From an uncultured Erysipelotrichaceae bacterium (lineage in GTDB: Bacteria; Bacillota_I; Bacilli_A; RF39; UBA660), in NCBI GenBank assembly GCA_902789225.1, contig CADANC010000003.1, positions 58,731 through 122,730 of the forward strand: a DNA stretch of 64,000 nt, in the 5' to 3' direction. Position 1 is the stretch's first letter. Each line of letters opens with the position of its first letter. The notes under the pieces were generated by a model. It made no database searches and was not told the DNA's origin. It saw only the letters and a program-made list of their open reading frames with translations. This document shows positions 18,049 to 61,750 of this stretch, piece by piece. Position numbers and translations under genes: made by a program.

Positions 18049-18056
18049 AGTATCAC

Positions 18057-21092: not shown

Positions 21093-21230
21093 AAACTCTT
21101 CCTCGTTATTATTGTACCATCTAAATAATATCACCAATTTTTTTTTATGTAAAGTTTGATAAATATTCAAATAATTATAACAAAAAATAAATTATTATAT
21201 ATTATTTGTTATAATAAAAATGGTGATAAT

Positions 21231-24336: not shown

Positions 24337-24481
24337 AATAATCACCATTTTCTTTATTTGTTTTTTTACAATATCATAAAAAAAATCATTATTCAATAAA
24401 ATAAAATGTATAAATATTATATAAAAAAATATACTTTTTGAGTTTTTTATGTTATAATATGCTCCGAAATGAGGATATATT

Positions 24482-25474
24482 ATGAAAATAAGAATAAATC
24501 CAAAAATGATAAATTTATTATTAACTACCAGTGCTCTTACTATAGGACTTACAGCTTGTAGTCCTGACAAAACACAAACATCAGGAGAAATTCATTATAA
24601 TATAGGAGAACACCAATTAATAGAAGTAGATCTAGGAATAGATTGGCCATTTGGTAAAGATGGTTTATATGGTTTAGAAGCACCAAAAGGATATAGAGTC
24701 GTAGATTTTGATTATGATTTTTTAGAAGATTCTACATCATATAGTGACTATTTTTATGAAAACACAAGCGAAGTTACTACTAATAATTCTAATAGTTTTG
24801 GTCAACCTGTTAATGATATAAAAGATAATGATAATCTATATGAGGCTGGAGAACATAGTATTGTTTCAATAGATAGAGGTATTAATCTATTAGGTAGTTT
24901 AGGTTTTACAAAAGACATAGAAGCACCAGTTGGATATGAAATAGTTGATTATGATTATGATGTGACTAATGGACTTGATTTTGAAAATATTACATATCAA
25001 AATAAAGAACTAGTAGAAGTTAATGATTTTGATAATTTTGGAACACCTATTGATAGTACAGAAAAAGATGATAAAGACTATTATGATATAGGTGAACATA
25101 CTATTGTTACACTTAACCGTAGTATTAATCCATTTTTTGGAAAAGATGAAAGTAAAACAATAGAAGCACCTGAAGGTTATGAGATAATTGACTATGATTA
25201 TGATAAATTACCTTCTACAGAATATGAAACAATTCTTTACAGAAATAATGTTCCAGTATCTAAAGTTAAAGACAGTTTTGGAACGCCTTTAGAAGAAGTA
25301 AGAGAAAAAGATGAGGCATTAGTAGAAATAGATAGAGACTTAAATATGCTATTTGGTAAAGTAACATTAAAAGAAGCTGATAAAAAAGATGGTTATTATT
25401 TAATAGATTACGATTATGATAAAAATCCATATTTTGAGTTTGAAACTCATGTTTACAAGAAGGGTAAAAAATAA
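24482..25474 (+). CDS. lipoprotein with four tandem repeats of about 80 aa ending in (I/V)DYDYD
   Basis: The lipobox is LTTSALTIGLTACSPDK. There are four repeats of the form GEHxxV..D/NR.IN..FGK...EAP.GYE(I/V)(I/V)DYDYD. An extended -10 (TGtTATAAT) and an RBS (gagga) lie upstream. Confidence 0.55.
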   Translation: MKIRINPKMINLLLTTSALTIGLTACSPDKTQTSGEIHYNIGEHQLIEVDLGIDWPFGKDGLYGLEAPKGYRVVDFDYDFLEDSTSYSDYFYENTSEVTTNNSNSFGQPVNDIKDNDNLYEAGEHSIVSIDRGINLLGSLGFTKDIEAPVGYEIVDYDYDVTNGLDFENITYQNKELVEVNDFDNFGTPIDSTEKDDKDYYDIGEHTIVTLNRSINPFFGKDESKTIEAPEGYEIIDYDYDKLPSTEYETILYRNNVPVSKVKDSFGTPLEEVREKDEALVEIDRDLNMLFGKVTLKEADKKDGYYLIDYDYDKNPYFEFETHVYKKGKK

Positions 25475-30176: not shown

Positions 30177-31088
30177 ATGAAAAGACTTATACCCTACTTA
30201 TTAATATTAATACTTTTAGCGGTCATCATTCTAAATAAAGATGCAATATATGAAAAATATACTGATTATATTATAGAAATAGAATCTAAAGAAATAAAAG
30301 CACCTGAAAATAACGAATATTCAAGAAATTATAGTTTTAGTTATGTACAACTAACTGATGATTTCATACCTGAAAATAAACAAGATTTATTAAATATATT
30401 ATTTACAGGACTTAATTCAGGAAAAGATTCATTTGATTTTTATTGTTCTAAAGATTATGACACATGCATTGAAGATGTAGAAGCAATTGCTAAAGACCAA
30501 GTAGTAATATCGGATATAAATAATTTTGTTCATCCATATAATTCATTTAATCATATAGAAACTAAATATGACACATTAGGACATATAACAATCACAACAA
30601 CAAGAAATTATACAGAAAGTCAAATAAATGAAATCAATAATAAAGTTGATGAAATATATAATAGTATATATGATCCAAATGTAGATTTAACAACAAATAT
30701 AAGTAATATTCATGATTATATAGTGAATAATACACAATATGATAAAGAAAGATCAGATCATAATGTAGTAACTTATTATTCAGATATAGCATATGGACCT
30801 CTATTACAAGGATATGCCTTATGTGGAGGATATGCAGATGCTATGGAATTATTCTTAGAAAAATTAGGAGTAGAAAGTTTTAAAGTATCAAGTGAAGAAC
30901 ATGTATGGAATGCTGTACATCTAAATGATACATGGTTACATCTAGACTTAACTTGGGATGATCCCATAACAACTTCAGGCGAAAACTATTTAACAAAAGA
31001 TTATTTTCTAATAACAACAGAACAATTAGAAGCAATCACTATTAGAGAACATAATTATGATAAAAATGTATATAAAGAATTAGCATAA
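30177..31088 (+). CDS. transglutaminase-like (Cys-His-Asp) domain protein with an N-terminal membrane anchor
   Basis: An N-terminal TM segment is present. The Cys motif is YALCGGYADAM, the His motif is EEHVWNAVHL and the Asp motif is HLDLTWDD. This ordering is typical of the transglutaminase-like superfamily. Confidence 0.65.
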   Translation: MKRLIPYLLILILLAVIILNKDAIYEKYTDYIIEIESKEIKAPENNEYSRNYSFSYVQLTDDFIPENKQDLLNILFTGLNSGKDSFDFYCSKDYDTCIEDVEAIAKDQVVISDINNFVHPYNSFNHIETKYDTLGHITITTTRNYTESQINEINNKVDEIYNSIYDPNVDLTTNISNIHDYIVNNTQYDKERSDHNVVTYYSDIAYGPLLQGYALCGGYADAMELFLEKLGVESFKVSSEEHVWNAVHLNDTWLHLDLTWDDPITTSGENYLTKDYFLITTEQLEAITIREHNYDKNVYKELA

Positions 31089-39350: not shown

Positions 39351-40523
39351 TTAAACAATAACATATGGATTATCTATTGTTCCATCACCCATTTGAACTA
39401 AAGTATTAACTTTAAGTTCAATAACAGGTCGAACCCCAAACTCTTGATCTAAAGTATAAGTATTATTTAAAGGTTTACTACCATTTATAGCATACATTTT
39501 ACTAGATCCATTAAAACCATTACTACCAAGTAGCCAATAATTACCACCATTATATAAGTAATAAGTTGAATTACCTCTACTTGATTTAATAGAACCATTA
39601 CCCGCTAAAATAGCTTCTTCTACACTTAATAATCCAATAGGATAAGAAAGTTTACCATTACTCATATTAATACTATATTCCTTATCACAACTAATACTAG
39701 GCATACCTTTATATATTCTATAACTAGTACAATAATACTTGTCTTTACCATCTAATATTCTTTGAATATAGTTAGGAATAATATAATCCATATAACTTGA
39801 ATCTACCTTTTCTTTTGTTTTTTCTTCTAAATATTTATTTTCATCTATTAGAGACTTTTCATCTTTAGAAGCCATACTTTCTAAATAACCATACCAATTC
39901 ATAACACTAGTATCATTACAAAAATTAATATCTTGATTTAAATAATCTTTATAAATATCTAAATTTTCAATATACCATTTATCAATAAAACTTTTAATTA
40001 AAGAATCACTATAACTAATATATTTTTCTCCTCTATAACTCTTATTATAAGGACTATTACCAATAGTAGTATCTAAAACATTACATGTATTATCACTAGA
40101 TAATCCAGAATAAATTAATCTAATAGAACCAGTATCAGTAGTTCTAACAATTCTAAAACAATGACTACCTAATTTAACATAATTAGTATTAACTACACCT
40201 CTATAATAATAAATAGGATAACTATCATTAATAGTACTATCAATCACATATAATCCTGAAGTAGTAACATCTTCACTAGATTTAGTATAATTAATTCCTT
40301 TATCACTAATAGGATTACTATCTCTAATTATTTGATTTAAACCGCTAATTTCAACAGTACCACTATTATGAGATAAATCTTTTATTTCACATCCACTATT
40401 AGTATAGATTTTACCACTTAATAATAAATATTTAACTAAAAAGAAAATTCCAACTAATATACCTATAATAAATATAAAAGTAAAAAGATTACTAAAAAAC
40501 CCACCTTTTTTTTCTTTTTCCAT
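39351..40523 (-). CDS. large membrane-anchored exported protein at the end of the pilin cluster (possible large minor pilin / tip-associated protein)
   Basis: The N-terminus is KKGGFFSNLFTFIFIIGILVGIFFLV, a prepilin-like hydrophobic segment that lacks Glu at +5. The exported domain of about 350 aa is Ser/Asn/Tyr-rich and contains Cys pairs. Confidence 0.4.
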   Translation of the reverse strand: MEKEKKGGFFSNLFTFIFIIGILVGIFFLVKYLLLSGKIYTNSGCEIKDLSHNSGTVEISGLNQIIRDSNPISDKGINYTKSSEDVTTSGLYVIDSTINDSYPIYYYRGVVNTNYVKLGSHCFRIVRTTDTGSIRLIYSGLSSDNTCNVLDTTIGNSPYNKSYRGEKYISYSDSLIKSFIDKWYIENLDIYKDYLNQDINFCNDTSVMNWYGYLESMASKDEKSLIDENKYLEEKTKEKVDSSYMDYIIPNYIQRILDGKDKYYCTSYRIYKGMPSISCDKEYSINMSNGKLSYPIGLLSVEEAILAGNGSIKSSRGNSTYYLYNGGNYWLLGSNGFNGSSKMYAINGSKPLNNTYTLDQEFGVRPVIELKVNTLVQMGDGTIDNPYVIV

Positions 40524-41052: not shown

Positions 41053-41640
41053 TTACCCCGTTACAACACATGGAGTACCAGTACCAGTTCCAGGAGTAGC
41101 TCCTGTAACAGCTACATCAGCTCTAGTTAATTGATCAGCAGGAACTCCACTACTAGGGTTAGCTTTATCAGCAACAATTCCATGTCCACCAGTATCAACC
41201 ATAGAAACATAATAAGTTAGTTTAATACTATCAGCTCCACCTGAGGCACCTGCAGTAACCTTTTCAACATGAACTTGAACAAAGCCTTCAACATCAGCTG
41301 TACCCCAAGAAGACTTACCACCATCTCCGATTAAAGCAGAAGCATTACTATAAGCTTCGCTAGAATCTGCTGAAGTCTTAAATGCCACATAGTAATTAGC
41401 GTTATCAGAAGGTAAAGCACTAGCAACTTTTCTGTCAGTACCAGTACCACATGATATTTCATCGGCAGCCCATCCATTTCTAACAGCTTGAACATAAGTC
41501 TGTGCAGTAGTAATAAAAGTATTTTTTCTAGCATTTTCAATTGTTCTAGAAACAGCAGGTATAGCAACTAACATCAATATACCTAAAATAGTAATAACAG
41601 CAAGTAACTCAATTAATGTAAATCCTTTTTTATCAATCAT
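41053..41640 (-). CDS. type IV pilin-like protein with a Gly/Ala/Thr/Pro-rich C-terminal region
   Basis: The start was placed at MIDKKGFTLIELLAVITILGILMLVAIPAV (ATG at 41640, RBS aggaga). The class III signal is G|FTLIE. Two Cys residues (EISCGTG and TPCVVTG) could form a domain-spanning disulfide. The C-terminus ends ...TGATPGTGTGTPCVVTG. Confidence 0.7.
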   Translation of the reverse strand: MIDKKGFTLIELLAVITILGILMLVAIPAVSRTIENARKNTFITTAQTYVQAVRNGWAADEISCGTGTDRKVASALPSDNANYYVAFKTSADSSEAYSNASALIGDGGKSSWGTADVEGFVQVHVEKVTAGASGGADSIKLTYYVSMVDTGGHGIVADKANPSSGVPADQLTRADVAVTGATPGTGTGTPCVVTG

Positions 41641-41716
41641 ATTTATTCTCCTATCTTTACAATAAAAATATATCACAATATTATTTTTTAAACAATACGT
41701 TTACACATTTTATAAA

Positions 41717-42349
41717 CTATTTGTCATTAGCATCATATAATACAGCATGTGTATTTTGAAGACTATTATAATTTGAAGGATAAGTAGCTGATATATAAAA
41801 TGCAGGATACAAACCAGAGAACTCTGTTAAAGGCCAAGTTATAGCATCACCCCTATTTTTAATAAAATCTTTTGTTTTTTTACCATCAACTTCAAATTCA
41901 TTAACATCTATTAGCTTAACTCCACGATCCGCACCAGATGCAGCACAAGTACAATTAGACTCACTACAACCAGAATTTACATTTTTGCATTCAATTAATT
42001 GTACATAATATTTATATGTTCCACCTCCATTGCAAACCAAAACATATGATAAGTGCGAATAATATGCACCACCTTGTGGAGGATCATTAAAATCGCCATT
42101 ATCTAGAAATGATAAATCCATCAAAGTACATCGTCCATTCGTAGGTTTACTTACACTATCATCAGTAGTACCTCGTACTTTATATGAAGCAACCGTTGCT
42201 AGCTTTTTGGCATCCTCAACATAAATAGTATTTTTTTGATTATTTAAAATACTCATAATATTAGGAGCAGCAACTGCCATAAGCAATCCTAATATTACTA
42301 ATGCAGCAAGTAATTCAATTAAAGTAAATCCTTTTCTATTTATTTTCAT
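41717..42349 (-). CDS. type IV pilin-like protein (Cys-rich)
   Basis: The N-terminus is MKINRKGFTLIELLAALVILGLLMAVAAPNI, a class III signal with Glu at +5. The 210-aa protein has about 10 Cys residues in its exported domain. Confidence 0.7.
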   Translation of the reverse strand: MKINRKGFTLIELLAALVILGLLMAVAAPNIMSILNNQKNTIYVEDAKKLATVASYKVRGTTDDSVSKPTNGRCTLMDLSFLDNGDFNDPPQGGAYYSHLSYVLVCNGGGTYKYYVQLIECKNVNSGCSESNCTCAASGADRGVKLIDVNEFEVDGKKTKDFIKNRGDAITWPLTEFSGLYPAFYISATYPSNYNSLQNTHAVLYDANDK

Positions 42350-47892: not shown

Positions 47893-49302
47893 TTAGTACT
47901 TAAATTTCTTAAATATAGTTTTTAATGTTTCAGCAGCAAATTTTCTATTCAAAACAACTGCATAAATAATTGATAATATTGCAACAACTATATTTATATA
48001 TAAATTATTATAGTAATATGCAACAAAAGCTATTATGAAAACACACACTAAAGAAAATATACTTCTTTTATTAAAAGTGATTTTCATATATTTTTTCAAA
48101 TCAAAGTATCTACTCATCATCATAGTAAAGTATGCTACTGCTGTAGATATTGCTGCTGCAAAAAGGCCTATTTTTTTAATAAAACATATATTTACAACTA
48201 TATTTATAATAGCTCCAATAATAGTAACATAAGCTACTTCTTTAGTCTTTTTAAGTCCAATATAGATTCCAGTATATAAAACAATAACTACATTAAATAC
48301 ATATGCTACTACAAGTATAGGAATGTACTTAAGAGCTTCATTGAACTTAGAATTAACAAATATTGGAAATACAAAAGGCATTAATGTAATAAGTAATAAT
48401 CCAACACATCCAAATAATTTAATCATTGAGTTAATAATTTCAGAGAAAAATTCTTCTCTATCTTTATCATTTATATGTAAAGCACTACTCTCACTCCAAC
48501 TTAAATTAAAAATACCAAGTAATGCATTCATTATAGTTGGAAATTTATTACTAATTGCATAAATACCATTAGCAGCTGTTCCTATTACCCAAGATACTAT
48601 TGTTCTATCAGATACATTAACTATCCACCAACTAATACTATTTGGGACTAGTGGAAGTGAATAACCTAACATCTTTTTAATTAACTTTGTATCTTTTAAT
48701 TTAATAGAAAAATATTTATATAATTTTAATCTAAAGAATATATAAACACAACATATAAAATTAGCAAAAGCCATAGAGAAGATCATACCAGTTTCTTTAT
48801 AGCCTAAACCACAAATTAAAATAATATTAGAAATAATTGTAACAAGACCAGTCACAATACAAGCAATACTATAATCTATAGTTTTTCCCATACCACGACA
48901 AACTTGTAATAAATCATCCCCTATAGTACAAACAACTACAGAAAAATATATTAATAATTTATAAGGAAAATCAACAAATAAACAAACAATACCATATATA
49001 ATACTAAATATTAATAAAGCGCCTAATATAATATAGAAGTTATTAGTAATATTAGATTTATTATCTTTATCTTTTCCCCTACTATCAACTAAAAATCTAA
49101 ATACACTCATTCCACTTTGAATAGATATTATAGGTACAAACAAAGTTACATAAGTCTGAATTAAATCTACAATACCATATTCTTTAGTACTTAAATAAGC
49201 TGTATATAAAGGTAATAAAAAGAACGATATTAACTGAGTTGAAGTTTTTCCTATAAATAAAATAATCGTATTCTTTATGAGTTCTTTTTTCTTTTTATCC
49301 AT
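47893..49302 (-). CDS. MOP-superfamily flippase (MurJ/Wzx-like, SpoVB/YtgP-type)
   Basis: A 469-aa polytopic protein with about 14 TM helices. It sits next to murE. Confidence 0.65.
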   Translation of the reverse strand: MDKKKKELIKNTIILFIGKTSTQLISFFLLPLYTAYLSTKEYGIVDLIQTYVTLFVPIISIQSGMSVFRFLVDSRGKDKDNKSNITNNFYIILGALLIFSIIYGIVCLFVDFPYKLLIYFSVVVCTIGDDLLQVCRGMGKTIDYSIACIVTGLVTIISNIILICGLGYKETGMIFSMAFANFICCVYIFFRLKLYKYFSIKLKDTKLIKKMLGYSLPLVPNSISWWIVNVSDRTIVSWVIGTAANGIYAISNKFPTIMNALLGIFNLSWSESSALHINDKDREEFFSEIINSMIKLFGCVGLLLITLMPFVFPIFVNSKFNEALKYIPILVVAYVFNVVIVLYTGIYIGLKKTKEVAYVTIIGAIINIVVNICFIKKIGLFAAAISTAVAYFTMMMSRYFDLKKYMKITFNKRSIFSLVCVFIIAFVAYYYNNLYINIVVAILSIIYAVVLNRKFAAETLKTIFKKFKY

Positions 49303-49787
49303 AAATGTCCTCCGAAATATAGAAATATTCCAAATAAATAACCTATACTGTCAATAATTACATCAAAAAAATTACCATCTCTACCAACAACAAAGTTTTG
49401 ATGTATTTCATCACTACAAGCATATAAAAAACATATTAAAATAGAAAATAATAAAATCTTTTTTAAAGTAATATTAAATTCAAAAAACAAACTACAAAGA
49501 GTAAATCCTAATATAAAATAAATAATCATATGAGCAGACTTCCTAACAACGGTAACATATTTATCAATTATCTTCTGCTCTTCTACACTACTTAGTTTTT
49601 TATTATTAAAAGTATAATAAATATTTAATATTATTGAATCACTTTTCTTTGTAGATTCTATTCCATTATCATTAGAAAATGAAAAAATATTAATCATACA
49701 TAAAAGTATAATAAATATTTTTACAGTTATTCTAACTATTTTGAAACTTTTCATCAATTGCTTTTCTTGCAACTTCTGCTTCATCAT
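49275..49787 (-). CDS. VanZ-family membrane protein
   Basis: The conserved VanZ core is RKSAHMIIYFILG...CSDEIHQNFVVGRDGNFFDVIIDSIGYLFG. There are four or five TM helices. Confidence 0.65.
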   Translation of the reverse strand: MMKQKLQEKQLMKSFKIVRITVKIFIILLCMINIFSFSNDNGIESTKKSDSIILNIYYTFNNKKLSSVEEQKIIDKYVTVVRKSAHMIIYFILGFTLCSLFFEFNITLKKILLFSILICFLYACSDEIHQNFVVGRDGNFFDVIIDSIGYLFGIFLYFGGHLWIKRKKNS

Positions 49788-51165
49788 AAGAAATATATTC
49801 TCCTTTTGTTATTTGATAAGGCTCATTACCTTTACATAGAAGTAAGACAATATCTCCATTCTCTGCATTATATATAGCCTTATTAACTGCTTCTTCTCTA
49901 TCTAATATAATTTCATAATTATTAGTTTTAACATCACTTACCATCATATCACAAATATCTTTTGGATCTTCATCTCTAGGATCATCTGTTGTAAAAATAG
50001 TGTTATCGGCATAATCACAACATATTTTTCCAATTACAGGTCTTTTTTCTTGATCTCTTCCACCAGCACTACCTATAACTACATATATTTTATTATGATC
50101 TAATTCCTTACTAAATTTTAAAATAGATTCAATAGCGTGAGGAGTATGTGCAAAATCAACTATAACCATAAATGGATTATCAACAATAATATCCATTCTT
50201 CCTTCTACTTTGATATTTTTAATATTATTAACTAAATCATCCATCTCAAAACCAAGACAAGTACAAGCAAGTAATGCACTAGCTAAATTATAGATGTTAT
50301 ATAAAGCTAATAAAGGACTATTAACTTCATATATTTTATCTTTATATTTAAAAGTAATATCAGTATGATCAACATATAACTTATATGAAACAATTTCCAT
50401 ATCAGCATCATTCATACCATAAGTAACAACTTGACCATTACTAGCTTCTTTGAATTCTTCAAAATATTCATCATCTTTATTTAAAACACAAAAACCATCT
50501 TTTTTAGTTTTTCTAAATAATTCTTTTTTACATTCTTTATAATTATCAAAAGTCTTATGAATATTTAAATGCTCAGGCGCAATATTAGAATAAATAGAAA
50601 CATCAAAATCAAAAGTACTTAGTCTATTCCTATAGAAAGCCTCACTAGATGTTTCCATAGATACATACTTACAACCATTATTTCTAAATGTATCTAAAAA
50701 TCTATATAACAAATGTGCATCAGGTGTAGTATTAATTAAATGTTCATGAAAATTAGTACAAGTTGCTCCATTAGTACCAATATAACCACAAACATCTTCT
50801 CCAATTAAAGTTCTAACTATCTCAGCAATAGTTGTCTTACCATCAGTTCCAGTAACCGCAATAAATTTCAAATCATTTTGAGGATCACCATAAAACTTCC
50901 TACATATTTTAGGAAATTCTTCATTAGTATTATCAACTTTAATTAAAGGAACACTTTTTTCTCCAACATCATGAGATATAACACAAGCTACAGCTCCATG
51001 TTCTATCGCATCATCAATAAAGTCATGTCTATCAGCACTAACCCCCATAGTACAAACAAACAAATCTCCATCAACACACTCTTTTGAGTTAAGAGAAACA
51101 CCTTTTATTAATACTTCACTATCAGTATTATCAAACAATTCATTTAATTTCATCATATGACTCAC
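49732..51165 (-). CDS. murE: UDP-N-acetylmuramoyl-L-alanyl-D-glutamate--2,6-diaminopimelate (or L-lysine) ligase
   Basis: The Mur-ligase P-loop is AVTGTDGKTT. The N-terminal arrangement (FVCTMGVSADRHDFIDDAIEHGA) is MurE-type. The C-terminal DDPR is a DNPR-like motif and suggests a meso-DAP-type enzyme. Confidence 0.85.
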   Translation of the reverse strand: MSHMMKLNELFDNTDSEVLIKGVSLNSKECVDGDLFVCTMGVSADRHDFIDDAIEHGAVACVISHDVGEKSVPLIKVDNTNEEFPKICRKFYGDPQNDLKFIAVTGTDGKTTIAEIVRTLIGEDVCGYIGTNGATCTNFHEHLINTTPDAHLLYRFLDTFRNNGCKYVSMETSSEAFYRNRLSTFDFDVSIYSNIAPEHLNIHKTFDNYKECKKELFRKTKKDGFCVLNKDDEYFEEFKEASNGQVVTYGMNDADMEIVSYKLYVDHTDITFKYKDKIYEVNSPLLALYNIYNLASALLACTCLGFEMDDLVNNIKNIKVEGRMDIIVDNPFMVIVDFAHTPHAIESILKFSKELDHNKIYVVIGSAGGRDQEKRPVIGKICCDYADNTIFTTDDPRDEDPKDICDMMVSDVKTNNYEIILDREEAVNKAIYNAENGDIVLLLCKGNEPYQITKGEYISYDEAEVARKAIDEKFQNS

Positions 51166-51256: not shown

Positions 51257-52165
51257 ATGAAAATTGTATTATTTGGAGCAGGCTCAGATTTAGGTACACA
51301 TATAGATGGTTCAAAACTAGGTCCAACTCAAATAAAAAATGATATCCAAGCCTCATTTCCAGGAGAAATAGTAGAACAATATCAAGAAAATAGTATAATT
51401 AAAAGTAGAAATCTATCAGATAGAAGAAAAAACGAATATGAAATAGAAGAATTTAATTCTACTGCCTATGAAAAATTAGTAGAATTAAAAGGAAGAGAAG
51501 ATACTTTTGTAATAACTGTAGGTGGAGATGATACAGTATCAATCCCATCAGTTCTAGCAAGTAAAAAAGTATTGGAAGACGTAGGATTAATCTATTTTAC
51601 CGGATCATGTTTATATGATACTTATAAAACATCCCCTAATGGTAATATGAGAGATTTAACAATTGCCAGTATAAATAATTATAAAACTGAAGGAATGAAT
51701 TATTATGCAAATGATAGAATATTCCCAGGTAAAACAGTAATAATAGGTTGTAGAGAAATGACTGAATCCGAAAATGAAAATCTAAAATATTCAGGAGTTA
51801 ATTGTATTACAGCAAAGAATATAAAAGAAGAAGGAATAGAAGATACATTAGAAAGAGCCTTCGAATTAGCAGTAGAAAAAACAAAAGGAGTACATGTAGT
51901 ATTCTCCTTAGGATTTATAGATCCAGAATATGCTCCAGGTGTATCAGAACCAAAATTCGATGGATTTGATGAAACAATAGTAACAACAATACATGAATAT
52001 TTAGTAAAACATATTGATTTAATAGTAGGATATGATATAGTTGATTTTAATCCACTACGTGATGAAGATAGAAAAACAGAACAAATTGCAATCAACTGTA
52101 TTGCCTCTATGGTAAATGCAGCACAAACTAAAGAAAGATTAGAAAAATTAGAAAAGAAATATTAA
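51257..52165 (+). CDS. arginase/deacetylase-fold (ureohydrolase-like) protein with degenerate metal-binding motifs
   Basis: Overall length and the GGDDT block resemble the arginase GGDHS motif. The FSLGFIDPEYAP block resembles the SxDxDxxDP motif. The His and Asp manganese ligands appear to be substituted. Confidence 0.45.
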   Translation: MKIVLFGAGSDLGTHIDGSKLGPTQIKNDIQASFPGEIVEQYQENSIIKSRNLSDRRKNEYEIEEFNSTAYEKLVELKGREDTFVITVGGDDTVSIPSVLASKKVLEDVGLIYFTGSCLYDTYKTSPNGNMRDLTIASINNYKTEGMNYYANDRIFPGKTVIIGCREMTESENENLKYSGVNCITAKNIKEEGIEDTLERAFELAVEKTKGVHVVFSLGFIDPEYAPGVSEPKFDGFDETIVTTIHEYLVKHIDLIVGYDIVDFNPLRDEDRKTEQIAINCIASMVNAAQTKERLEKLEKKY

Positions 52166-52189
52166 AAGATATCCACTTGGATATCTTTT

Positions 52190-52591
52190 TTAATCACTAT
52201 AATTTGGACAATTCAAAATTGCTTTATAAGAAAATTTTCCTTTTTCTACAAAGGTTACTTCCACTTTAGTACCATTTATATCACAAGGTTTTTTATTACT
52301 ATCAACAAATTCACCTATATAGTTATTATTTTGTAATGTACCTAAAGTAATTTCTTTTTTTTCGCCACTCGTTCTAGGATATAAAGCCTGATTCTTTTGT
52401 AAATATGATTTAGCTGCAGTAATTAATTCTTTTTTTTGAGTTTCATAATAATTTTCATTACCCTTTTTTATTAATCCATTAACTGCAACAATACCTATAA
52501 CAGAAATAATACCTAATATAGTAACAACAGCTAATACCTCAACCATAGTAAACCCATTTTTCTTATTTTTCTTTTTTCTTTTTTTACTCAT
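52190..52591 (-). CDS. prepilin-type N-terminal cleavage/methylation domain protein (pseudopilin)
   Basis: The N-terminus is MSKKRKKKNKKNGFTMVEVLAVVTILGIISVIGIVAV, with G|FTMVE and Glu at +5. The 133-aa protein has two Cys residues near its C-terminus. Confidence 0.65.
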   Translation of the reverse strand: MSKKRKKKNKKNGFTMVEVLAVVTILGIISVIGIVAVNGLIKKGNENYYETQKKELITAAKSYLQKNQALYPRTSGEKKEITLGTLQNNNYIGEFVDSNKKPCDINGTKVEVTFVEKGKFSYKAILNCPNYSD

Positions 52592-52673
52592 AAAATCAAT
52601 CCTCTACTTATAACTTATTAAATAATTAAATTTAAATCAATAAAAAAGAAGTAATTTTACTTCTTATTTACTA

Positions 52674-53798
52674 TTAAAAACTTCTTTCCCTTAAGAATAT
52701 AGGAATATCATCATTATCAACATCTGTATTGTAATTAGGTTTTTCTTCTTTTTCTGATAATGCTTCAACATTCTTAGGAACTTGACTTCTTCTACTTGTT
52801 GTAGGAATTAATAATTCCTCAGGTTCTTCATCTTTTTCTTCTTCAATATCTTTATCAAATCCAGTAGCAATTACTGTAACTATAACCTCTTCAGATAAGT
52901 TTTCATTTATTACAGAACCAAATATTGTATTAATATCTTTTTGTGATGCAGCTCTTACAACTTCTGCAGCTTGTTCAGCTTCGAATAATGTTAAATTAAC
53001 TCCACCAGTAATATTAATAATAGCATCTGTTGCTCCTTCTATAGATGTTTCAAGTAATGGTGATGAAACAGCTTGTCTAGCAGCTTCAATAGCTCTATCT
53101 TCACCCATACCAATACCAATACCAATGATTGCTCTACCTGAATTTTCCATTACAGATTTAATATCAGCAAAGTCTAAGTTAACAAGACCAACAACAGCAA
53201 TCAAATCAGAAATTGATTGAACACCACGACGAAGTACATTATCTACTTCTTTAAATGCTTCAAGCATAGGTGTAGTCTTATCAATAATAGTTCTTAATCT
53301 ATCATTTGGAATAACAATTAATGTATCAACATGATTCTTTAATTCTTCAATTCCTTGTAATGCATTTTGCATTCTTCTCTTACCTTCGAATGAAAATGGC
53401 TTAGTAACAATTGCAACAGTTAATGCTCCAAGTGCTTGAGATATCTCAGCAACTACAGCAGCAGCTCCAGTTCCAGTTCCACCACCCATTCCACAAGTAA
53501 TGAAAACCATATCTGCACCAGTTAATGCATCTTCGATTTCTTTTTTTGATTCAACTGCAGATTCACGACCAATTTCAGGTCTTCCACCAGCACCTAATCC
53601 ATCAGTTAAAGCAGCACCAATTTGAATTTTAACATCTGCCTTTGAATTATTTAAAACTTGTAAATCAGTATTAGCCGCAATGAATTCAACACCTTTAACT
53701 CCGGATTCAACCATTCTGTTAATAGCATTTCCTCCACCTCCACCAAGTCCAATAACCTTGATTTTGGCTAATTGATCCATCTCTAATCCACCTTGCAT
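52674..53798 (-). CDS. ftsZ: cell division protein FtsZ
   Basis: The tubulin signature is [11 protein letters not shown]. The N-terminus reads [19 protein letters not shown]-terminal variable tail ends in the conserved DIPIFLR peptide. An RBS (aaggagg) precedes the first ATG. Confidence 0.92.
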
Positions 53799-53812: not shown

Positions 53813-55048
53813 TTAATTGTCGAAGAAATGTCCAAACATTTTACGAGCTATACCCCCGTTAGAGACACCTTCGTTCACAGAAACTAAATTCTTAAATTCA
53901 TTTTCATTTATCATATTATAACTCTTTCCCCTTAGAGTTAATTTATCATCAAAATATATACAACTACCTAGTGCACTAGAAAATTTATTATTACGGATAC
54001 CCATAATATCTATTTTGCAAACTTTACCAATACCATTAAAATAGATATCAACTAAATGATCCATACCTTTAATTTCGCTTAATCCACCTGTTACAATTAT
54101 ATAACTTATTTTTCTATTTGTTAAGTTTTTTATTTCTTCTAAAGATAATTTAAGTATTTCTCTAATACGAGCTTCTACTACTTTAGATAAGCCTATTTGT
54201 TTAACTTGCTTATCGTTTCCTTCATTATCTTTTATAGTAGTATCTTCATTATAATCAGCATCTACGCCTATAGCATAGGCAAAATCTTCTTTTAATTTTC
54301 TAGCATCTTTTAAGTCACAATTATAAATATAAGCAACATCTTTATCAACATTAATACTACCCATATTAAGTACACTATTCTTAATTTGAATGCCTTTATT
54401 AAATACAGAAATATTAGTACTAGTTTCTCCTATATTAATAACTGCTCCAACACTATTATCATAAAAATTATTTTTAATAGTATAGTAGTCTCCAGTTGAT
54501 TTAAAACAAACATCTATTGTATCTACACCAGCTAACTTTAAAGTTTCAAGAACTCTATACATTGAACTCTTATCAATAGAACTAATAACGATTTTAGACT
54601 CTAATGTCTTACCACTTAATCCTTTAGGATCTTTTACTTTCTTAACTCCATCTATAACAAAATAAATAGGTGTAGAAGTAACTAATTCTTGATCCTCAAA
54701 ATTAATCTTTCCAATCGCATCATTTAATAAATTAGTAATGTCTGCCCCTGTAATTTTTTGACTATCTAAAGTATCAACACTACCTTCTACTATATCCATC
54801 TTAAGATGTATAGGATTTAAACAACATACTGCCTTAGTAATAGTAAGTCCCAACATATTTTCAATTTCATCTAAACTTTTTCTAACTAATGTAGAAACAC
54901 CCTTAGTATTAGTAATTTCACCATTAGTAATATAAGGACATGGAGTACTAATAGAAGAAAGTAAATTAAATTTATTCTTAATTTTTTCTAAAACAACTAT
55001 TTTAATACTATTAGTACCAATATCTATTCCAGTATAAACATTACCCAT
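53813..55048 (-). CDS. ftsA: cell division protein FtsA
   Basis: An actin-like ATPase. The phosphate-1 motif is [15 protein letters not shown]. The 411-aa protein has a C-terminal amphipathic tail. It lies immediately upstream of ftsZ. Confidence 0.9.
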
Positions 55049-55111: not shown

Positions 55112-56428
55112 CTACTTTTTATAATAAACAAAATAATTAGAGTCTTCACCTATTAGTTTATATTTTTTAAAGATATAATCACATATATTATTATCAAATT
55201 GATTAATATTATTATATGAACTCTTATTTATAATAAAATAAGTATCCTTTTTATTATCAAAGTCTTTTAAAATTTTATTTTCTCCATCATATCCAAAATT
55301 ACCATATAATAAATTAGTATAATAATTAATATTTCTATCATGATTAATATTATAAAAAACAGCATTTTCACCCAACAAAATATAATTATTCATCTTATAT
55401 TTTAAAACCAACTTATCAACATCATCGTTTAACTTAACAAAATCAGAACTCGTATAAAAATCAGGATAATACTTGCTATGATAAAAAGTAGTTTTAAAAG
55501 TATTAATATTAATGAAAAAATATCCTAAAATAAATAAAATACTACAAACCAATATAGAAATACTATATTTAAATTTATAATTAAAATTAATAAGATAAAT
55601 AACTAATGTACTGAATAAAAAATAAGAAAAATGATTAAAATCACATATAGGAATTATAAAACCTATAGGTACTAATAAAAATAAATAAGTCATTTTATCC
55701 TTATTCTTAGTAAGAATATAAATACTAATAATAATAATTATAATAGAAAGAATAAACCATATATTAAATCCTAAATTATTAGTAGATGAAAAGTCTACCA
55801 TACCTAATATAGAAAGATTAACAAAATCTTTAAATAAACCAAATATGAACAAATAAATAATAAATAAAATCAAAGGAATAAATATACCTAAAATAATCTT
55901 AAAAAAAGACTTAATATCTTTAAATAAATAACAGAAAAAAGGAAGTAAAAAGAATATTCCTATACTATGTTTAGTTAATATAGATAAACCAATACATAAT
56001 CCTATTAAATAATTACTCTTTTTATTCTTATATAAATAAAATATTAATACAAACCAAAATATCATTAATAAATTATATGTTTGTGTTACAGGATATAACT
56101 TACATATAGATATCAAAAGTATAAATAAATAAGCTTTATAATCATATAATTTAAATAATAAATAAAATATTAAAGTACCTATAATAGCATTACTTACAGT
56201 AAAAGTAATAAACGAATCATTAATCAATAAGAACAATGAAGAATAATAAAAATATAAAGGAGTTGAAACTATATTTAAATCTAAATAAGGTAGTTTTCCA
56301 TATATTAAAGAACGGCTATATCCATACATTAATGTAGCATCATATATATTATGATAATATCCAAAGAAATTATATATTAACATAAAGAAAACAAATATAA
56401 ATATTAATCTTATAATATTCTTTTTCAT
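55112..56428 (-). CDS. polytopic membrane protein, GT-C-fold glycosyltransferase-like / Wzy-like (tandem paralog 1 of 3)
   Basis: A 438-aa protein with 11-13 TM helices. The first extracytoplasmic loop has Asp/Tyr/Pro residues (YDATLMYGYSRSLIYGKLPYLD). A conserved block KSNYLIGLCIGLSILTKHSIG is present. The C-terminal soluble domain is about 100 aa. Confidence 0.55.
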   Translation of the reverse strand: MKKNIIRLIFIFVFFMLIYNFFGYYHNIYDATLMYGYSRSLIYGKLPYLDLNIVSTPLYFYYSSLFLLINDSFITFTVSNAIIGTLIFYLLFKLYDYKAYLFILLISICKLYPVTQTYNLLMIFWFVLIFYLYKNKKSNYLIGLCIGLSILTKHSIGIFFLLPFFCYLFKDIKSFFKIILGIFIPLILFIIYLFIFGLFKDFVNLSILGMVDFSSTNNLGFNIWFILSIIIIIISIYILTKNKDKMTYLFLLVPIGFIIPICDFNHFSYFLFSTLVIYLINFNYKFKYSISILVCSILFILGYFFININTFKTTFYHSKYYPDFYTSSDFVKLNDDVDKLVLKYKMNNYILLGENAVFYNINHDRNINYYTNLLYGNFGYDGENKILKDFDNKKDTYFIINKSSYNNINQFDNNICDYIFKKYKLIGEDSNYFVYYKK

Positions 56429-56430
56429 AA

Positions 56431-57747
56431 TTACTCCTTATAATAAACTAAAAAATCTTCTATACTATATTTCTTATCAGAGACTTCCACAATATAATCG
56501 TATATTTCCATAGAAAACTGTGTATCTTCTCTTTTATTAATATAAAAATACACATCATGCATATCATCTATTCTTTTTTTCATTTTATTTATACCATCAT
56601 AACCATAATTACCATCATTAGGTATATCAAAATAAGTAATTTGATGATTACTCATAATATCAAAAAACATATTATCATAACTAAACATATAATTATTATC
56701 TCGACTATTATAATCAGTATAAATATAATTAATATACTCTTCTAGCCTATCACTAACTAAATAACCATAAAAATATTTATTAGTTAGAATATTCTTATCT
56801 TTATATAAATTCCAATTCAAATAAAAATTAATAAAAACAATAAAGACAAATATTAAAGAACAAAACAAATAAATATGTTTAATATATTTTTTATTAACAC
56901 TAGAATTATAAATAATTATAAATAAATATATAAAAGCAAAATAATTAAAATGAAATTGATCAATTATTGGAAGAATAAAAGAGTAAGCACCCAATATATA
57001 ATAATTATAAATATCTTTAGGATTCTTAATAAATCTATATATTAAATAGATTAATAATACAAAACTAATAATTAATATATAAAGAGTAAATCCTCCATTA
57101 GAAGAACCAAAATCAAATAATCCAAGAATAGTTAAATCAACAAATTCATACAAACTATGATTAATTAATAAATATAGAAAGAAAACAACCAATAAAGGAA
57201 TAACTCCAATTATTCTTTTTTTAATCTTAGAAAAATCAAAAGTACCTATCAAAGTAACTAATAAAAAGAAGACTCCTATACTATGCTTAGTAAGAATAAG
57301 AAGAGAAAGAACAATTCCAATTAAATAATCACTCTTATTATTTTTTTCTAAATAAAGTAAAAATATTACTAAAAAAACTGCTAAAAAATTATAATTAGGC
57401 AATATAAAAAAGAATCTAGGAAAAGCAATTATAGGTAATAATATTAATACTTTATTACCTATAAGTTTATAAATAAAGGCAAAAAACAAAGTAACTAAAA
57501 TAGCTTGTCCAAATAAAAATAACAAATAACTATCTTTTATTAATAAAAATCCACTCATCAAATATTGATATAAAGGAGTCATCACAATATTAAAATCTTT
57601 ATAAGGAATCTCTCCCAACCTAATAGCATGACTCATTCCAAAATTCCAAGTAACATCAGCAAAGTTTATAGAAAAAAGTATTAATAAAGAATAAACAACG
57701 AAAAAAGAAACAAATATTATTAATATGTTTTTAATATTCTTTTTCAT
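56431..57747 (-). CDS. polytopic membrane protein, GT-C-fold glycosyltransferase-like / Wzy-like (tandem paralog 2 of 3)
   Basis: A 438-aa protein homologous to its two neighbours. Its loop 1 is ADVTWNFGMSHAIRLGEIPYKDFNIVMTPLY. The conserved block is EKNNKSDYLIGIVLSLLILTKHSIG. Confidence 0.55.
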   Translation of the reverse strand: MKKNIKNILIIFVSFFVVYSLLILFSINFADVTWNFGMSHAIRLGEIPYKDFNIVMTPLYQYLMSGFLLIKDSYLLFLFGQAILVTLFFAFIYKLIGNKVLILLPIIAFPRFFFILPNYNFLAVFLVIFLLYLEKNNKSDYLIGIVLSLLILTKHSIGVFFLLVTLIGTFDFSKIKKRIIGVIPLLVVFFLYLLINHSLYEFVDLTILGLFDFGSSNGGFTLYILIISFVLLIYLIYRFIKNPKDIYNYYILGAYSFILPIIDQFHFNYFAFIYLFIIIYNSSVNKKYIKHIYLFCSLIFVFIVFINFYLNWNLYKDKNILTNKYFYGYLVSDRLEEYINYIYTDYNSRDNNYMFSYDNMFFDIMSNHQITYFDIPNDGNYGYDGINKMKKRIDDMHDVYFYINKREDTQFSMEIYDYIVEVSDKKYSIEDFLVYYKE

Positions 57748-57755
57748 CTTATCAC

Positions 57756-59069
57756 CTACTCTTTATAATATACTTTATTACCCATAATTTCATATTTAAA
57801 TTGAGAATTATCAATTATATATTCATTAATCTCAGTAGCACTCTGCCTATTAGTACAATCATTTAAGTAGAAATAAACATCATGCATATTATCAATTCTC
57901 TTCTTCATTTTATTAATTCCATTATATCCATAATTACCATAATTATTAATTGAAAAATAATCAATTCTTTTATCAGTAATTATATTAAAAAACATAGAAT
58001 CACAACTAAACATATAGTTGTTATCTCTCATCTCATAATCTTTAATAACTTTAGTAATATATTCATTAGCATACTCATCTACATAATAATGATCAAAATG
58101 ATTATAATTATAGAATTTATAATTTCTTAACCTTTCTTTATGAAGAACAAAAATATTAAAACAAATAGAAAAAATAAATACTAAATAAAATATTACTTTA
58201 AATAATAAATTATATGTAATATTATGATTAATTAATAAAATCAAAATAAAGATAAACAATAAATAACTAACATGATGAAGATCACATATAGGAATTATAA
58301 AAGAAAATGATCCAATCAAATAATAATTAGTTATATCTTTATAATTATTCTTTATTCTATAAATTAGATAAATAAAAACAGGAATAACTAATAAAGAAGC
58401 AATAATATTAAAAGAAGAATTTCCAGAAAAATCAAACAAACCTAAAAAACATAAATCTATAAAAGAATTAAAACTATTGGTAATTAATAAATATGAAATA
58501 AATATTATATTCATAGGAATAAAACCAATTATTCTTTTTTTTATCTTATCAAAATCAAAAGAACTGATTAAGACCATTATAAGCAGGAAGATACCTATAC
58601 TTTGTTTAGTTAAAAATAACAAAGATAAAATAAATCCTATAAGATAATCAGATTTATTATTCTTTTCTAAATATATTAATAATACTATAAATAATAAACA
58701 TAAAAAGTTATAACTAGGATATATCATATAAGAAGATAACATTATAAGTAATAAAAAATATATTTTTTTTTCTAATAATTTATCTAACAAAAAAATAAAA
58801 GCCAATAAAAGAATAGATTGTTCTATTAAAAAAACAAACCATGAATTTTTAATAAATAAACCTATGCTCATAATAGCAGGATATAAAGGCGTAATAATCA
58901 TATTAAAATCTTTATAAGGAATCTCACCTATCCTAATAGCATGACTAAATCCATAATTCCAAATAACATCTGCATCACCTGTAGAAAAAAATAAAAAGAA
59001 ACTAAAAAATATAATGAATAATATTATATATTTACTAATATTCAAAATATTTTTTTTAGCTTCTTTCAT
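57756..59069 (-). CDS. polytopic membrane protein, GT-C-fold glycosyltransferase-like / Wzy-like (tandem paralog 3 of 3)
   Basis: A 437-aa protein. It is the closest paralog of 56431..57747 (ADVIWNYGFSHAIRIGEIPYKDFNMIITPLY; EKNNKSDYLIGFILSLLFLTKQSIG). Confidence 0.55.
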   Translation of the reverse strand: MKEAKKNILNISKYIILFIIFFSFFLFFSTGDADVIWNYGFSHAIRIGEIPYKDFNMIITPLYPAIMSIGLFIKNSWFVFLIEQSILLLAFIFLLDKLLEKKIYFLLLIMLSSYMIYPSYNFLCLLFIVLLIYLEKNNKSDYLIGFILSLLFLTKQSIGIFLLIMVLISSFDFDKIKKRIIGFIPMNIIFISYLLITNSFNSFIDLCFLGLFDFSGNSSFNIIASLLVIPVFIYLIYRIKNNYKDITNYYLIGSFSFIIPICDLHHVSYLLFIFILILLINHNITYNLLFKVIFYLVFIFSICFNIFVLHKERLRNYKFYNYNHFDHYYVDEYANEYITKVIKDYEMRDNNYMFSCDSMFFNIITDKRIDYFSINNYGNYGYNGINKMKKRIDNMHDVYFYLNDCTNRQSATEINEYIIDNSQFKYEIMGNKVYYKE

Positions 59070-59072: not shown

Positions 59073-59759
59073 TTACTCCTTTATTTCAAAGTGATTACCA
59101 TTATCTAAGTATAATATTCCTTTATGTCCTTCAAGTTGAACAACAATATTATCATAATAATTAATTTTACTAAATTTAGTTAGAGTAACAAATACCATAT
59201 TACCATCATCCATATACAATTTAAATCTTTCATCATCTAATGGAGTACTAGAATATTCTATATCACTAATCTTAATCAGTACATTACCCTTAACCTTATC
59301 AAGAGCTGTAATAAATCTTTTATATTTATTTTTTGGAACATAATTATTTAATCTAGGTATATTAAAATTATATAAACAATCATCCATATTAATAGATGTA
59401 TTATTATTAAAAACAACATTCTTACTATAAACATCATAAATTACAGGTTTATTTTCATCTATATCAATAATTAAACTTCTATTAAGTTTTCTTCTAACAT
59501 TAACTTTATTTATATAAGGAGATTTTTTTAATTTTTTCTCTACTTTTGAACTATTTGTAAGTAAAAAAGAAGGATAATCTATTACGCCACCTAACTCTAA
59601 AACATAATCATCTTTTAGATAAGTAGTATTTTTAACTACTATATTACTTATAGGTCTATCCAAAAAAAACTTACAAGCCAAAACAATACCTAAAATAACA
59701 ATTATAAGTATTAATAAAGGTAATATTTTAATTTTCCTTTTCTTTACTTTTCTAGCCAT
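59073..59759 (-). CDS. divIB: cell division protein DivIB/FtsQ
   Basis: A short basic cytoplasmic N-terminus is followed by a single TM segment (ILPLLILIIVILGIVLA). POTRA and beta domains follow. The gene sits between murB and the ftsA block. Confidence 0.65.
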   Translation of the reverse strand: MARKVKKRKIKILPLLILIIVILGIVLACKFFLDRPISNIVVKNTTYLKDDYVLELGGVIDYPSFLLTNSSKVEKKLKKSPYINKVNVRRKLNRSLIIDIDENKPVIYDVYSKNVVFNNNTSINMDDCLYNFNIPRLNNYVPKNKYKRFITALDKVKGNVLIKISDIEYSSTPLDDERFKLYMDDGNMVFVTLTKFSKINYYDNIVVQLEGHKGILYLDNGNHFEIKE

Positions 59760-59760
59760 A

Positions 59761-60681
59761 TTACTCCCAATTTACAAATTCTTGTTCACATTTTAAATCA
59801 ACATTATACTTTTCTAATACAGTATCATGAACTAACATAATAAGTTCATGTATATCAGTCGCAGTCGCATGATTATAATTAACAATAAAATTAGCATGCT
59901 TTTTTGATACCATTGCGCCGCCTATTTTTTTTCCTTTCAAACCGGCCTCCTCAATAAGTCTTCCAGCAAAATCCCCTTCAGGATTACGGAAAACACTACC
60001 ACAAGAAGGATATTCTAAAGGTTGAGACTCAATTCTTCTCTTACGTCTATCATTCATAACTTCTAAAATAGCTTCTTTTTTACCCTTCTTTAATTGAATT
60101 AAAGCTTCTAAACAAATATATCCAGGATGTTTTTTCAAGAAAGAATCTCTATAATGAAAATCTAACTCTAAATTAGTAAGAGTAATAACTTCAAATTGAT
60201 CAGTTAATACTTTTACATTTTTAACTACATAACCCATATCACTTTTATAGGCACCAGCATTCATATATACAGCTCCACCTACAGTACCAGGTATACCAGA
60301 AGCAAATTCTAATCCAGTTAAATCTCTTTTAGCACATAAAGTAGATAATTTAATAAGAGAAAAACCAGCTCCCACTCTAACTCTATTTTGAGACAAAAAC
60401 TTAACTTTATCAAAATCTTTTAATTTAATTAAAACACCATCATATAATTCATCACTAAATAATAAATTACTACAATTACCAATAATTTTAAATTTAATAT
60501 CATTATTTTTTAATAGTTTTAGTAAACCAACAAGTTCTTTTAAGTTATTTGGATAAGCTATAACTCTAGCTTTACCTCCAGCCTTATAAGAAGAGATTTT
60601 TTCTAATTCTACATTTTCATCTACTTTAATATTTAATTTTTTTATATTCTTAATAATATTTTTATCCATTATTATCACCAA
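59761..60681 (-). CDS. murB: UDP-N-acetylenolpyruvoylglucosamine reductase
   Basis: The FAD-binding domain carries GGKARVIAYP...IGNCSNLL. The MurB catalytic residues include the GSVFRNP region. The protein is 306 aa. Confidence 0.9.
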   Translation of the reverse strand: MVIIMDKNIIKNIKKLNIKVDENVELEKISSYKAGGKARVIAYPNNLKELVGLLKLLKNNDIKFKIIGNCSNLLFSDELYDGVLIKLKDFDKVKFLSQNRVRVGAGFSLIKLSTLCAKRDLTGLEFASGIPGTVGGAVYMNAGAYKSDMGYVVKNVKVLTDQFEVITLTNLELDFHYRDSFLKKHPGYICLEALIQLKKGKKEAILEVMNDRRKRRIESQPLEYPSCGSVFRNPEGDFAGRLIEEAGLKGKKIGGAMVSKKHANFIVNYNHATATDIHELIMLVHDTVLEKYNVDLKCEQEFVNWE

Positions 60682-61750
60682 TAACTTTCAAAATGACATC
60701 ATATATTCTGCTGCTAGAATCTTTTATTCCTAGCTTTAGACTATTATTATGAATTTCCTCATAACGTTTTTTATCATCAAATAATTTATCAATTGTATTT
60801 ATTATTTTATTAGCATTAAATTCATCTTCACTAACAACAATTGCTGCTCCAGCATCTTCTAATTCTTTAGCATTAATCATTTGATGATTATGAGTTACAT
60901 AAGGACTAGGAACTAATATAGTAGGAAGCCCAATAGAAGTAACTTCAGCTATAGTAGAAGCCCCTGCTCTAGATACTAATAAATCACTATCTTTCATAAG
61001 ATTAATTAAATCTTCACAATAACTTAATAATTTAACATTTTCAGGCACTAATATATCTTTATAATTATCAATATAATTCTTACCTGTAATAACTAATACT
61101 TGATAATTTTTATTTTTAAATGCAGGAATTAATTCCTTAATCTTATTAGTCATAGTAATAGAACCTAAACTACCCATTACAAAAATAACTAATTTTTTAT
61201 TATCATCAAATCCATATTTAGATTTATTGATTTTATTAACATTAACAATTTCTTCACTTCTAGGATTACCTGTATAAACACATTTTTCTTCAGGAAAATA
61301 TTTAACACTACCAGGAAGAGAAACACATATCTTTTTAACTTTCTTAGTAAGTAATTTATTAGACAATCCAGGAATAGAATTCTGCTCATGAATAATAGAA
61401 GGTATTCCTAATTTATAAGCCGCATTTAAAACAGGTAAAGTAATATACCCACCTACACCAATAACAATATCAGGCTTAAATTCTTTAAGTATATTTAAAG
61501 CCTCTTTATAACCTTTTCTATATTTCTTAAAAACCTTAAAATTATGAAACAATCTATGTCTATCTAATCCTTCAATATCAAATCCTTTAAAAGGAATTCC
61601 AGCCTTAGGAACAATATCTTTTTCCATTTTAGTAGATGTTCCAATATATAAAACATCACTATCTTTATCTTCCGATTTAATCTTATTTATTATTGAAAGA
61701 GCTGGATATATATGACCTCCACTACCTCCTGCTACGACAACATATTTCAT
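60662..61750 (-). CDS. murG: UDP-N-acetylglucosamine--N-acetylmuramyl-(pentapeptide) pyrophosphoryl-undecaprenol N-acetylglucosamine transferase
   Basis: The N-terminus is VVAGGSGGHIYPALSI. The C-terminal GT-B region is MGSLG...RAGASTIAEV. The gene overlaps murB by 20 nt. Confidence 0.9.
   Translation of the reverse strand: MKYVVVAGGSGGHIYPALSIINKIKSEDKDSDVLYIGTSTKMEKDIVPKAGIPFKGFDIEGLDRHRLFHNFKVFKKYRKGYKEALNILKEFKPDIVIGVGGYITLPVLNAAYKLGIPSIIHEQNSIPGLSNKLLTKKVKKICVSLPGSVKYFPEEKCVYTGNPRSEEIVNVNKINKSKYGFDDNKKLVIFVMGSLGSITMTNKIKELIPAFKNKNYQVLVITGKNYIDNYKDILVPENVKLLSYCEDLINLMKDSDLLVSRAGASTIAEVTSIGLPTILVPSPYVTHNHQMINAKELEDAGAAIVVSEDEFNANKIINTIDKLFDDKKRYEEIHNNSLKLGIKDSSSRIYDVILKVIGDNNG

Follow-up and report, generated by a model that had tools for sequence, protein, structure and literature searches.

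Putative GT-C glycosyltransferases encoded by a variable gene array between divIB and ftsA in uncultured gut and rumen Bacilli

Three paralogous genes, here called X1, X2 and X3, lie between the cell division genes divIB and ftsA of an uncultured Erysipelotrichaceae bacterium (assembly GCA_902789225.1, contig CADANC010000003.1). We analysed them within a stretch of 64,000 nt of this contig (positions 58,731 to 122,730 of the forward strand), referred to as the window, whose own numbering is used throughout; loci from related genomes are designated L plus a number, and coordinates following such a number belong to that locus. An earlier note, made from the letters of the window alone, had described three consecutive minus-strand open reading frames (ORFs) for homologous proteins of 437-438 amino acids (aa), and all three were found exactly where it had placed them:

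55112-56428, minus strand: X1, 438 aa, the ftsA-proximal and most diverged copy; putative catalytic residue D30 (codon 56339-56341)
56431-57747, minus strand: X2, 438 aa, the middle copy, for which the model was made; putative catalytic residue D31 (codon 57655-57657)
57756-59069, minus strand: X3, 437 aa, the divIB-proximal copy; putative catalytic residue D34 (codon 58968-58970); ribosome-binding site AAGGAG

BLASTP comparisons gave 49% identity between X2 and X3 (E 7e-108), as against 37% and 36% between X1 and, respectively, X2 (E 9e-60) and X3 (E 3e-42), in agreement with the note's description of two close copies and a diverged one. X2 and X3 share the first-loop motif ADV[TI]WN[FY]G[MF]SHAIR[LI]GEIPYKDFN and a second block, EKNNKSDYLIG...LTK[HQ]SIG, both found as previously quoted, with a degenerate form in X1. 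No further paralog occurs within the 64-kb window. The slot occupied by the three genes is bounded by, and continuous with, genes for division and cell wall (dcw) functions:

59761-61750, minus strand: murG-murB, upstream, in the same apparent transcription unit; the orthologs in relatives carry Glyco_transf_28 and MurB_C
59073-59759, minus strand: divIB/ftsQ, the upstream slot boundary, 228 aa; POTRA_1 E 1.4e-11
53813-55048, minus strand: ftsA, the downstream slot boundary; TIGR01174 E 2.7e-45, with Pfam FtsA and SHS2_FTSA
52164-53798, minus strand: ftsZ, a pseudopilin gene and a hairpin, where the transcription unit probably ends

The intergenic gaps are 3 nt between divIB and X3, 8 nt between X3 and X2, 2 nt between X2 and X1, and 63 nt between X1 and ftsA, and murG shares 20 nt with murB. 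A Shine-Dalgarno sequence precedes each of X1-X3, and the sole terminator-like hairpin of the region (52189-52164) follows the pseudopilin gene located 3' of ftsZ. Because the gaps are short and no hairpin occurs before the end of the pseudopilin gene, X1-X3 are most likely co-transcribed with murG-murB-divIB-ftsA-ftsZ. Ratios of nonsynonymous to synonymous substitution rates (dN/dS), calculated against the 1:1 orthologs of L006, the nearest other species, were 0.22 for X1, 0.25 for X2 and 0.29 for X3, and the corresponding values for their neighbours were 0.27 for DivIB, 0.15 for MurG, 0.12 for MurB, 0.09 for FtsA and 0.03 for FtsZ. All three genes are, by these estimates, under purifying selection.

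We examined the topology of X2 by combining the helices of its model (AlphaFold2 secondary structure) with hydropathy and charge statistics from 104 family members. This yielded about 11 transmembrane (TM) helices, instead of the 12 counted before, with the N-terminus inside and the C-terminus outside. Loops rich in K/R (residues 94-99, 170-180, 239-246 and 281-290) alternate with loops poor in K/R (residues 109-119 and 258-267); a loop that has acidic residues as well (134-140) counts less clearly among the former. Two regions stand out on the outer face:

57529-57672, minus strand: first outer loop (EL1) of X2, residues 26-73, with D31 and PYxDFN; predicted donor and catalytic site
56434-56814, minus strand: C-terminal alpha/beta domain of X2, residues 312-438, extracytoplasmic, with an invariant GNxGYxG loop and Q410

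EL1, whose net charge is negative and which contains two short helices, is assigned to the outside by the positive-inside rule; the C-terminal domain comprises about 125 aa and not the approximately 100 aa first estimated. Residue D31, placed 5-6 residues past TM1, is kept in 102 of the 104 copies, and conservation in the remainder of EL1 is similarly high (Y49 in 103/104, D51 in 100/104 and N53 in 101/104). Y119, N120, K154, G379-N380-x-G382 and Q410 are present in 104/104 copies, and P260, D263 and H266 are also invariant or nearly so. All of these invariant or near-invariant residues map to the outer face or to the C-terminal domain, and the putative active-site residues are kept by X1, X2 and X3. 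K154 and H266, both on the outer face, may be compatible with phosphate binding.

Glycosyltransferases of the GT-C fold are defined by a polytopic membrane domain with 7-13 TM helices, and their hallmark catalytic position is an acidic residue directly past TM1, in the first outer loop (PMC11127046). X1-X3 agree in the number of helices, in the acidic residue of the outer loop past TM1, and in the likeness of their fold to solved enzymes. A Foldseek search with the predicted model of X2, which is of high confidence, returned ArnT as the top match (E 5e-4), followed by AftB, STT3, ALG12, ALG9 and PglB; a structural comparison agreed with this result, with ALG6, DPY19, STT3B, PglB and EmbA as lower-ranked matches. 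Transporter and receptor folds appeared only at noise level, with a Foldseek probability <=0.07 for transporters, which argues against an unrelated transporter family, the outcome that the earlier note had named as fatal to its proposal. No Wzy, WaaL or SEDS proteins were found among the fold matches.

Searches with sequence models were far less productive. X1-X3 matched no Pfam-A or NCBIfam model at E<=1, GT87 and PMT_2 included, and searches of PDB sequences with profiles of 3 and 48 sequences produced only noise, with nothing even at E<=10. Ten of the 48 relatives reached GT87 (PF09594, DUF2029), with 25-29 bits for a Pfam gathering cut-off of 25 bits, and the other 38 fell below it; five came near the cut-off of PMT_2 (PF13231; GT39/GT83-like; 26.1 bits), with 21-26 bits and 25.6 for the best relative. 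These matches cover the TM2-TM7 core, only about 150 residues, and on this sequence evidence the family sits at the edge of known GT-C sequence models. The YfhO model of Pfam had no match in X1-X3 or in the 48 relatives. None of X1-X3 matched the FTSW_RODA_SPOVE profile or a SEDS fold; a separate FTSW_RODA_SPOVE gene is found near the array in L005. Likewise, X1-X3 showed neither a match to the Wzy_C or EpsG profiles nor a WaaL/Wzy-type fold, and the polymerase or ligase function entertained in the note finds no support. Its other suggestion, a GT-C enzyme, is supported by the fold matches (ArnT, AftB, STT3, ALG12), the TM count and the Asp past TM1. Together, the predicted model and these features support X1-X3 as an unnamed family of the GT-C fold.

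To define the distribution of the family, we carried out an exhaustive profile search over clusters at 50% identity, which retrieved 2418 cluster representatives at E<=1e-3, of which 747 had E<=1e-30. The 150 highest-ranking representatives were 266-475 aa long, mostly full length (430-455 aa), and their sources name them only as 'hypothetical protein'. The family is known only from metagenome-assembled genomes of uncultured low-GC Bacilli of rumen and gut, whose records carry the labels Bacilli, Erysipelotrichaceae, Tenericutes or Mollicutes. Among 37 species-level genome loci found through the family itself, 35 contained 1-5 tandem copies between divIB and ftsA or lay on a contig ending inside the array. 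The other two (L029 and L034) had solitary copies elsewhere, with RmuC, an alpha/beta hydrolase and a pilus/secretion locus as neighbours, which give no hint of function, and an additional copy upstream of murG was seen in two of the 37.

An unbiased sample was anchored on FtsA and consisted of 43 metagenomic loci showing both divIB and ftsA. Seventeen had no copy, 14 of them with divIB directly beside ftsA and three with other genes only, and the remaining 26 contained one copy (7 loci), two (2), three (13), four (3) or five (1). The closest non-conspecific relatives, L045-L047, whose FtsA is 67-71% identical, have none; L006, from a different species, has a 1:1 ortholog of each of X1-X3, with a synonymous divergence (dS) of about 0.45; and the slot is occupied across a clade in which FtsA is only 46-56% identical. 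Short or broken family matches inside otherwise intact arrays (L023 4979-5834, L040 4946-7499, L018 6251-6703 and L079 3714-4220) probably represent copies in the course of decay, which fits a turnover by birth and death.

A neighbour-joining tree of 104 copies, built without bootstrap and used for broad statements only, showed long deep branches and partial clustering by array position. X2 and X3, with their L006 orthologs, are sisters, and X1 belongs to another clade, no nearer to X2 and X3 than copies from other species. With 0-5 copies per locus, the number that the note had asked for, and such a deep tree, the family therefore neither results from a single triplication, as the note had proposed, nor is present wherever the division genes are. 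From these comparisons, it is an old multigene family in birth-and-death evolution at a fixed chromosomal slot, that is, an accessory array.

We consider it probable that X1-X3 are active paralogous GT-C enzymes that move a sugar from a polyprenyl-phosphate donor to an extracytoplasmic surface glycopolymer, and that they constitute an accessory module at a hot spot of the dcw cluster and not a core division component. Each paralog would consist of an anchor of about 11 TM helices that presents, on the outer face, the first loop with its near-invariant Asp and the C-terminal alpha/beta domain, which is small. If they work like every characterised GT-C enzyme, the donor would be an undecaprenyl-phosphate (Und-P)-sugar flipped to the outer leaflet, and the sugar would pass to an extracytoplasmic acceptor, most probably a lineage-specific surface glycopolymer such as a lipoglycan, a polymer resembling lipoteichoic acid (LTA) or a wall polysaccharide. 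Each paralog might have its own specificity for sugar or linkage, following the precedent of the ALG3/9/12, Aft/Emb or Gtr series, and co-transcription with dcw genes would have these enzymes made when and where new envelope forms. The single pointer to a coupling with division, which the note had put forward, is the position of the genes, and that proposal comes out weakened.

Several observations weigh against this interpretation. Pfam scans covering nearly all window ORFs >=150 aa revealed no GT2/GtrB-like donor synthase or GtrA-type flippase in the 64-kb window, and none was found beside the arrays of L001, L003 and L005, which leaves a three-component system incomplete in cis; no carbohydrate-binding fold is recognisable in the C-terminal domain; and the association with LtaS- and pgsA-like genes, described below, is limited to three loci. 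The donor synthase and the flippase could be encoded elsewhere in the genome. A Polysacc_synt/MatE protein (47893-49302), presumably a lipid II or Wzx-type flippase, adjoins murE and VanZ, and we do not assign it to the array.

Alternatively, X1-X3 could be protein O-glycosyltransferases (PMT-, PgtC2- or PgfM-like) that act on division or envelope proteins such as penicillin-binding proteins (PBPs), PrsA, LCP or DivIB, which would account for their location in the dcw cluster and has a precedent in the streptococcal GT-Cs that modify PBP1a, PrsA and FtsQ (PMC12041528). We find this unlikely, because the adjoining DivIB lacks a Ser/Thr-rich tail, the known Firmicute enzymes belong to the YfhO and Pgf families, unmatched by X1-X3, and 1-5 fast-diverging paralogs are more easily reconciled with a diversity of glycan linkages than with one activity aimed at proteins. 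It is more improbable still that they are transporters, given the noise-level fold matches, or non-catalytic scaffolds or lipid-binding subunits with a GT-C fold, like PIG-U/GAB1: the Asp past TM1, K154, H266, the YN motif and the GNxG loop are near-invariant in 104 diverged copies, which is the pattern of an active site.

The presence of the family inside murG-murB-divIB-ftsA-ftsZ in more than 60 loci, in a lineage reported to have lost most PBPs (PMC10868615), might also suggest a core role, with X1-X3 as septal envelope synthases that draw on lipid II or some other essential lipid-linked precursor, are required for division and compensate for the lost PBPs. This is very improbable in view of the zero-copy loci, which include the closest sister lineages and suggest that genomes without the family divide normally, and of the variable copy number, the decaying fragments, the lack of a universal ortholog group, dN/dS values 2-10x those of MurG, FtsA and FtsZ, and the lack of a SEDS-like fold.

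The array has a GC content of 17-20%, below that of its flanks, and is missing from the closest sister lineages, as could be expected from a recent strain-specific horizontal insertion via a mobile element or phage, like the Gtr seroconversion cassettes; the note had listed such an insertion among the findings that would overturn it. However, its GC at third codon positions (0.116-0.126) is within the range of its neighbours (0.096-0.135), and the low overall value is due to codon positions 1 and 2, reflecting the hydrophobic, Lys/Asn/Tyr-rich composition of membrane proteins; an MBOAT gene elsewhere in the window is as AT-rich as the array. With no integrase or transposase in the window, no repeats around the array other than the paralogy itself, only two tRNAs, both far from it, no relatives in the viral contigs scanned, 1:1 orthologs in a different species and a slot filled across a divergent clade, we give hardly any credence to such an insertion.

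Our preferred interpretation, of accessory GT-C enzymes acting on a surface glycopolymer, is set within a slot that houses diverse other genes in relatives. The earlier note held that nothing lies canonically between divIB and ftsA; this does not apply to Bacillus subtilis, whose slot contains ylxW-ylxX-sbp (PMC6827917). L028 has a PMT_2-type GT-C in the slot, and other relatives have polytopic proteins of about 475 aa (group A5) that are remote homologs of the family (hhalign 95%, E 3e-8). Comparisons with other slot groups were ambiguous for A7 (44%) and showed no relation for A6. A further polytopic group is found among relatives. Additional occupants are:

L017 8949-10373, L018 11055-12461 and L024 1437-2849; also in L058, L063, L079, L080, L081, L113 and L120: polytopic protein of about 470 aa with the motif DYFWHIKAGE
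L007 11025-12566, L010 8377-9918 and L014 12297-13871: FAD amine-oxidase-like oxidoreductase, 513-524 aa
L021 9704-12219, L031 4523-6914 and L068 7498-9918: pair formed by a CDP-alcohol phosphatidyltransferase (pgsA-like) and an LtaS-like membrane protein with a sulfatase domain

The DYFWHIKAGE protein is found directly upstream of ftsA in at least 10 related loci and has no Pfam match and no detectable relation to the X1-X3 family; by sequence, it is a further unannotated gene product of the slot, independent of that family. In L007 and L014 the FAD oxidoreductase has polytopic proteins to either side of it, and in L010 there is one downstream; this enzyme could act on a lipid-linked sugar donor. 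The pgsA-like/LtaS-like pair is possibly an LTA-type module between the GT-C copies and ftsA. The shared theme of the slot occupants is extracytoplasmic envelope biogenesis. The related uncultured orders RFN20, RF39 and ML615J-28 are predicted to be thin-walled, to have lost most PBPs and to be without standard pathways for wall teichoic acid and LTA (PMC10868615). We venture, as a speculation with a rather small chance of being right, that in such thin-walled gut and rumen Bacilli the divIB-ftsA interval is a dedicated hot spot, in which diversifying GT-Cs (this family and at least one remote sister family), sometimes with LtaS/PgsA-like proteins, are co-transcribed with the divisome and assemble a septal, lineage-specific glycopolymer that replaces teichoic acids, with the turnover of paralogs driving antigenic or phage-receptor variation.

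Other genes of the window were also inspected. The surroundings of the array are housekeeping in nature (dnaG, rpoD, ftsK, uvrC, mutL, miaA, rnc, RNase J, nrdDG, efp). Upstream of murG lies a divergently transcribed HIGH_NTase1 gene. Downstream, murE, a VanZ-like gene and a Polysacc_synt/MatE/MurJ-like flippase gene (47893-51165, minus strand) follow ftsZ instead of preceding murG, and the dcw cluster of this lineage is therefore split and rearranged. An arginase/agmatinase-family gene (51257-52165, plus strand) is located between murE and the ftsZ-pilin end of the operon, as it is in L001 and L002. A type IV pilin-like (N_methyl) gene (52190-52591, minus strand) lies directly past ftsZ, and two more pseudopilin genes are found 10 kb off (41053-42349, minus strand); we dropped pilin glycosylation as a function of X1-X3 because relatives L001 and L002 do not have the pilin gene at this position.

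Genes for a GDSL hydrolase, a DHHW/AlgX-like SGNH protein and an MBOAT acyltransferase occur in a row (15987-19370 and 19821-21170, both minus strand), adjoined by a gene for a secreted Ig-like plus GDSL protein. The row looks like a cassette for O-acylation of a surface glycan or peptidoglycan, another envelope-modification module in the window. NrdD, an anaerobic ribonucleotide reductase (5993-8383, minus strand), has a C-terminal glutaredoxin/thioredoxin-like domain (residues ~726-778), and a thioredoxin-reductase-like gene (5087-5989) is immediately downstream. Several ORFs of 303-546 aa had no Pfam match at E<=1e-4 (1673-2707, 14880-15887, 22930-24570 and 39351-40523, minus strand; 21156-22205, 24482-25474 and 30177-31088, plus strand), and those at 22930-24570 and 24482-25474 overlap convergently at 24482-24570.

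Should their activity be demonstrated, X1-X3 would probably become the founders of a new GT-C (CAZy) family and would offer a first way of studying the surface glycans that abundant, uncultured Bacilli of gut and rumen carry. With its operon position fixed and its copy number varying from 0 to 5, the array offers a clean natural experiment on how paralogs arise and are lost, and would allow one to ask whether the location of envelope-decorating enzymes in a division operon carries functional meaning. Our current understanding of cell division is unchanged by these findings.

The known enzymes nearest in fold are the GT-Cs that use polyprenyl-phosphate-monosaccharide donors (ArnT/GT83, ALG3/ALG9/ALG12, PIG-M, PimE/GT87 and AftA/AftB/Emb). 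X1-X3 have no similarity to PDB sequences detectable with hidden Markov models at E<=10; at about 438 aa they are shorter, their C-terminal alpha/beta domain is particular to them, and their genes stand in tandem in a dcw operon. Their activity is putative. The likeness to GT87 and PMT_2 of Pfam is confined to the TM2-TM7 core of a minority of the family, and X1-X3 themselves match neither. Three-component systems (GtrA/GtrB/Gtr* of enterobacteria; CsbB/GtcA/YfhO for Firmicute teichoic acids; GT136, PMC11127046) differ in that X1-X3 have no adjacent GT2 Und-P-sugar synthase or GtrA/MATE flippase, do not belong to the YfhO family, are not phage-borne and reside in a dcw operon instead of a glycan or prophage locus. 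They are alike in that a GT-C would act outside the membrane on a pre-made polymer, that several variable GT-C specificities would lead to surface diversity, and that accessory genes in varying copy number are involved. For the genomic position, the closest parallel is in B. subtilis, whose slot genes encode small DUF881 and DUF1290 proteins, not glycosyltransferases, so that homology with X1-X3 is not to be expected. These genes (ylxW/ylxX/sbp) share with X1-X3 the same operon position and a non-core, lineage-specific character (PMC6827917). X1-X3 belong to a sizeable family that has gone unannotated within a known class of enzymes, and their place in the operon, though unusual, has a precedent.

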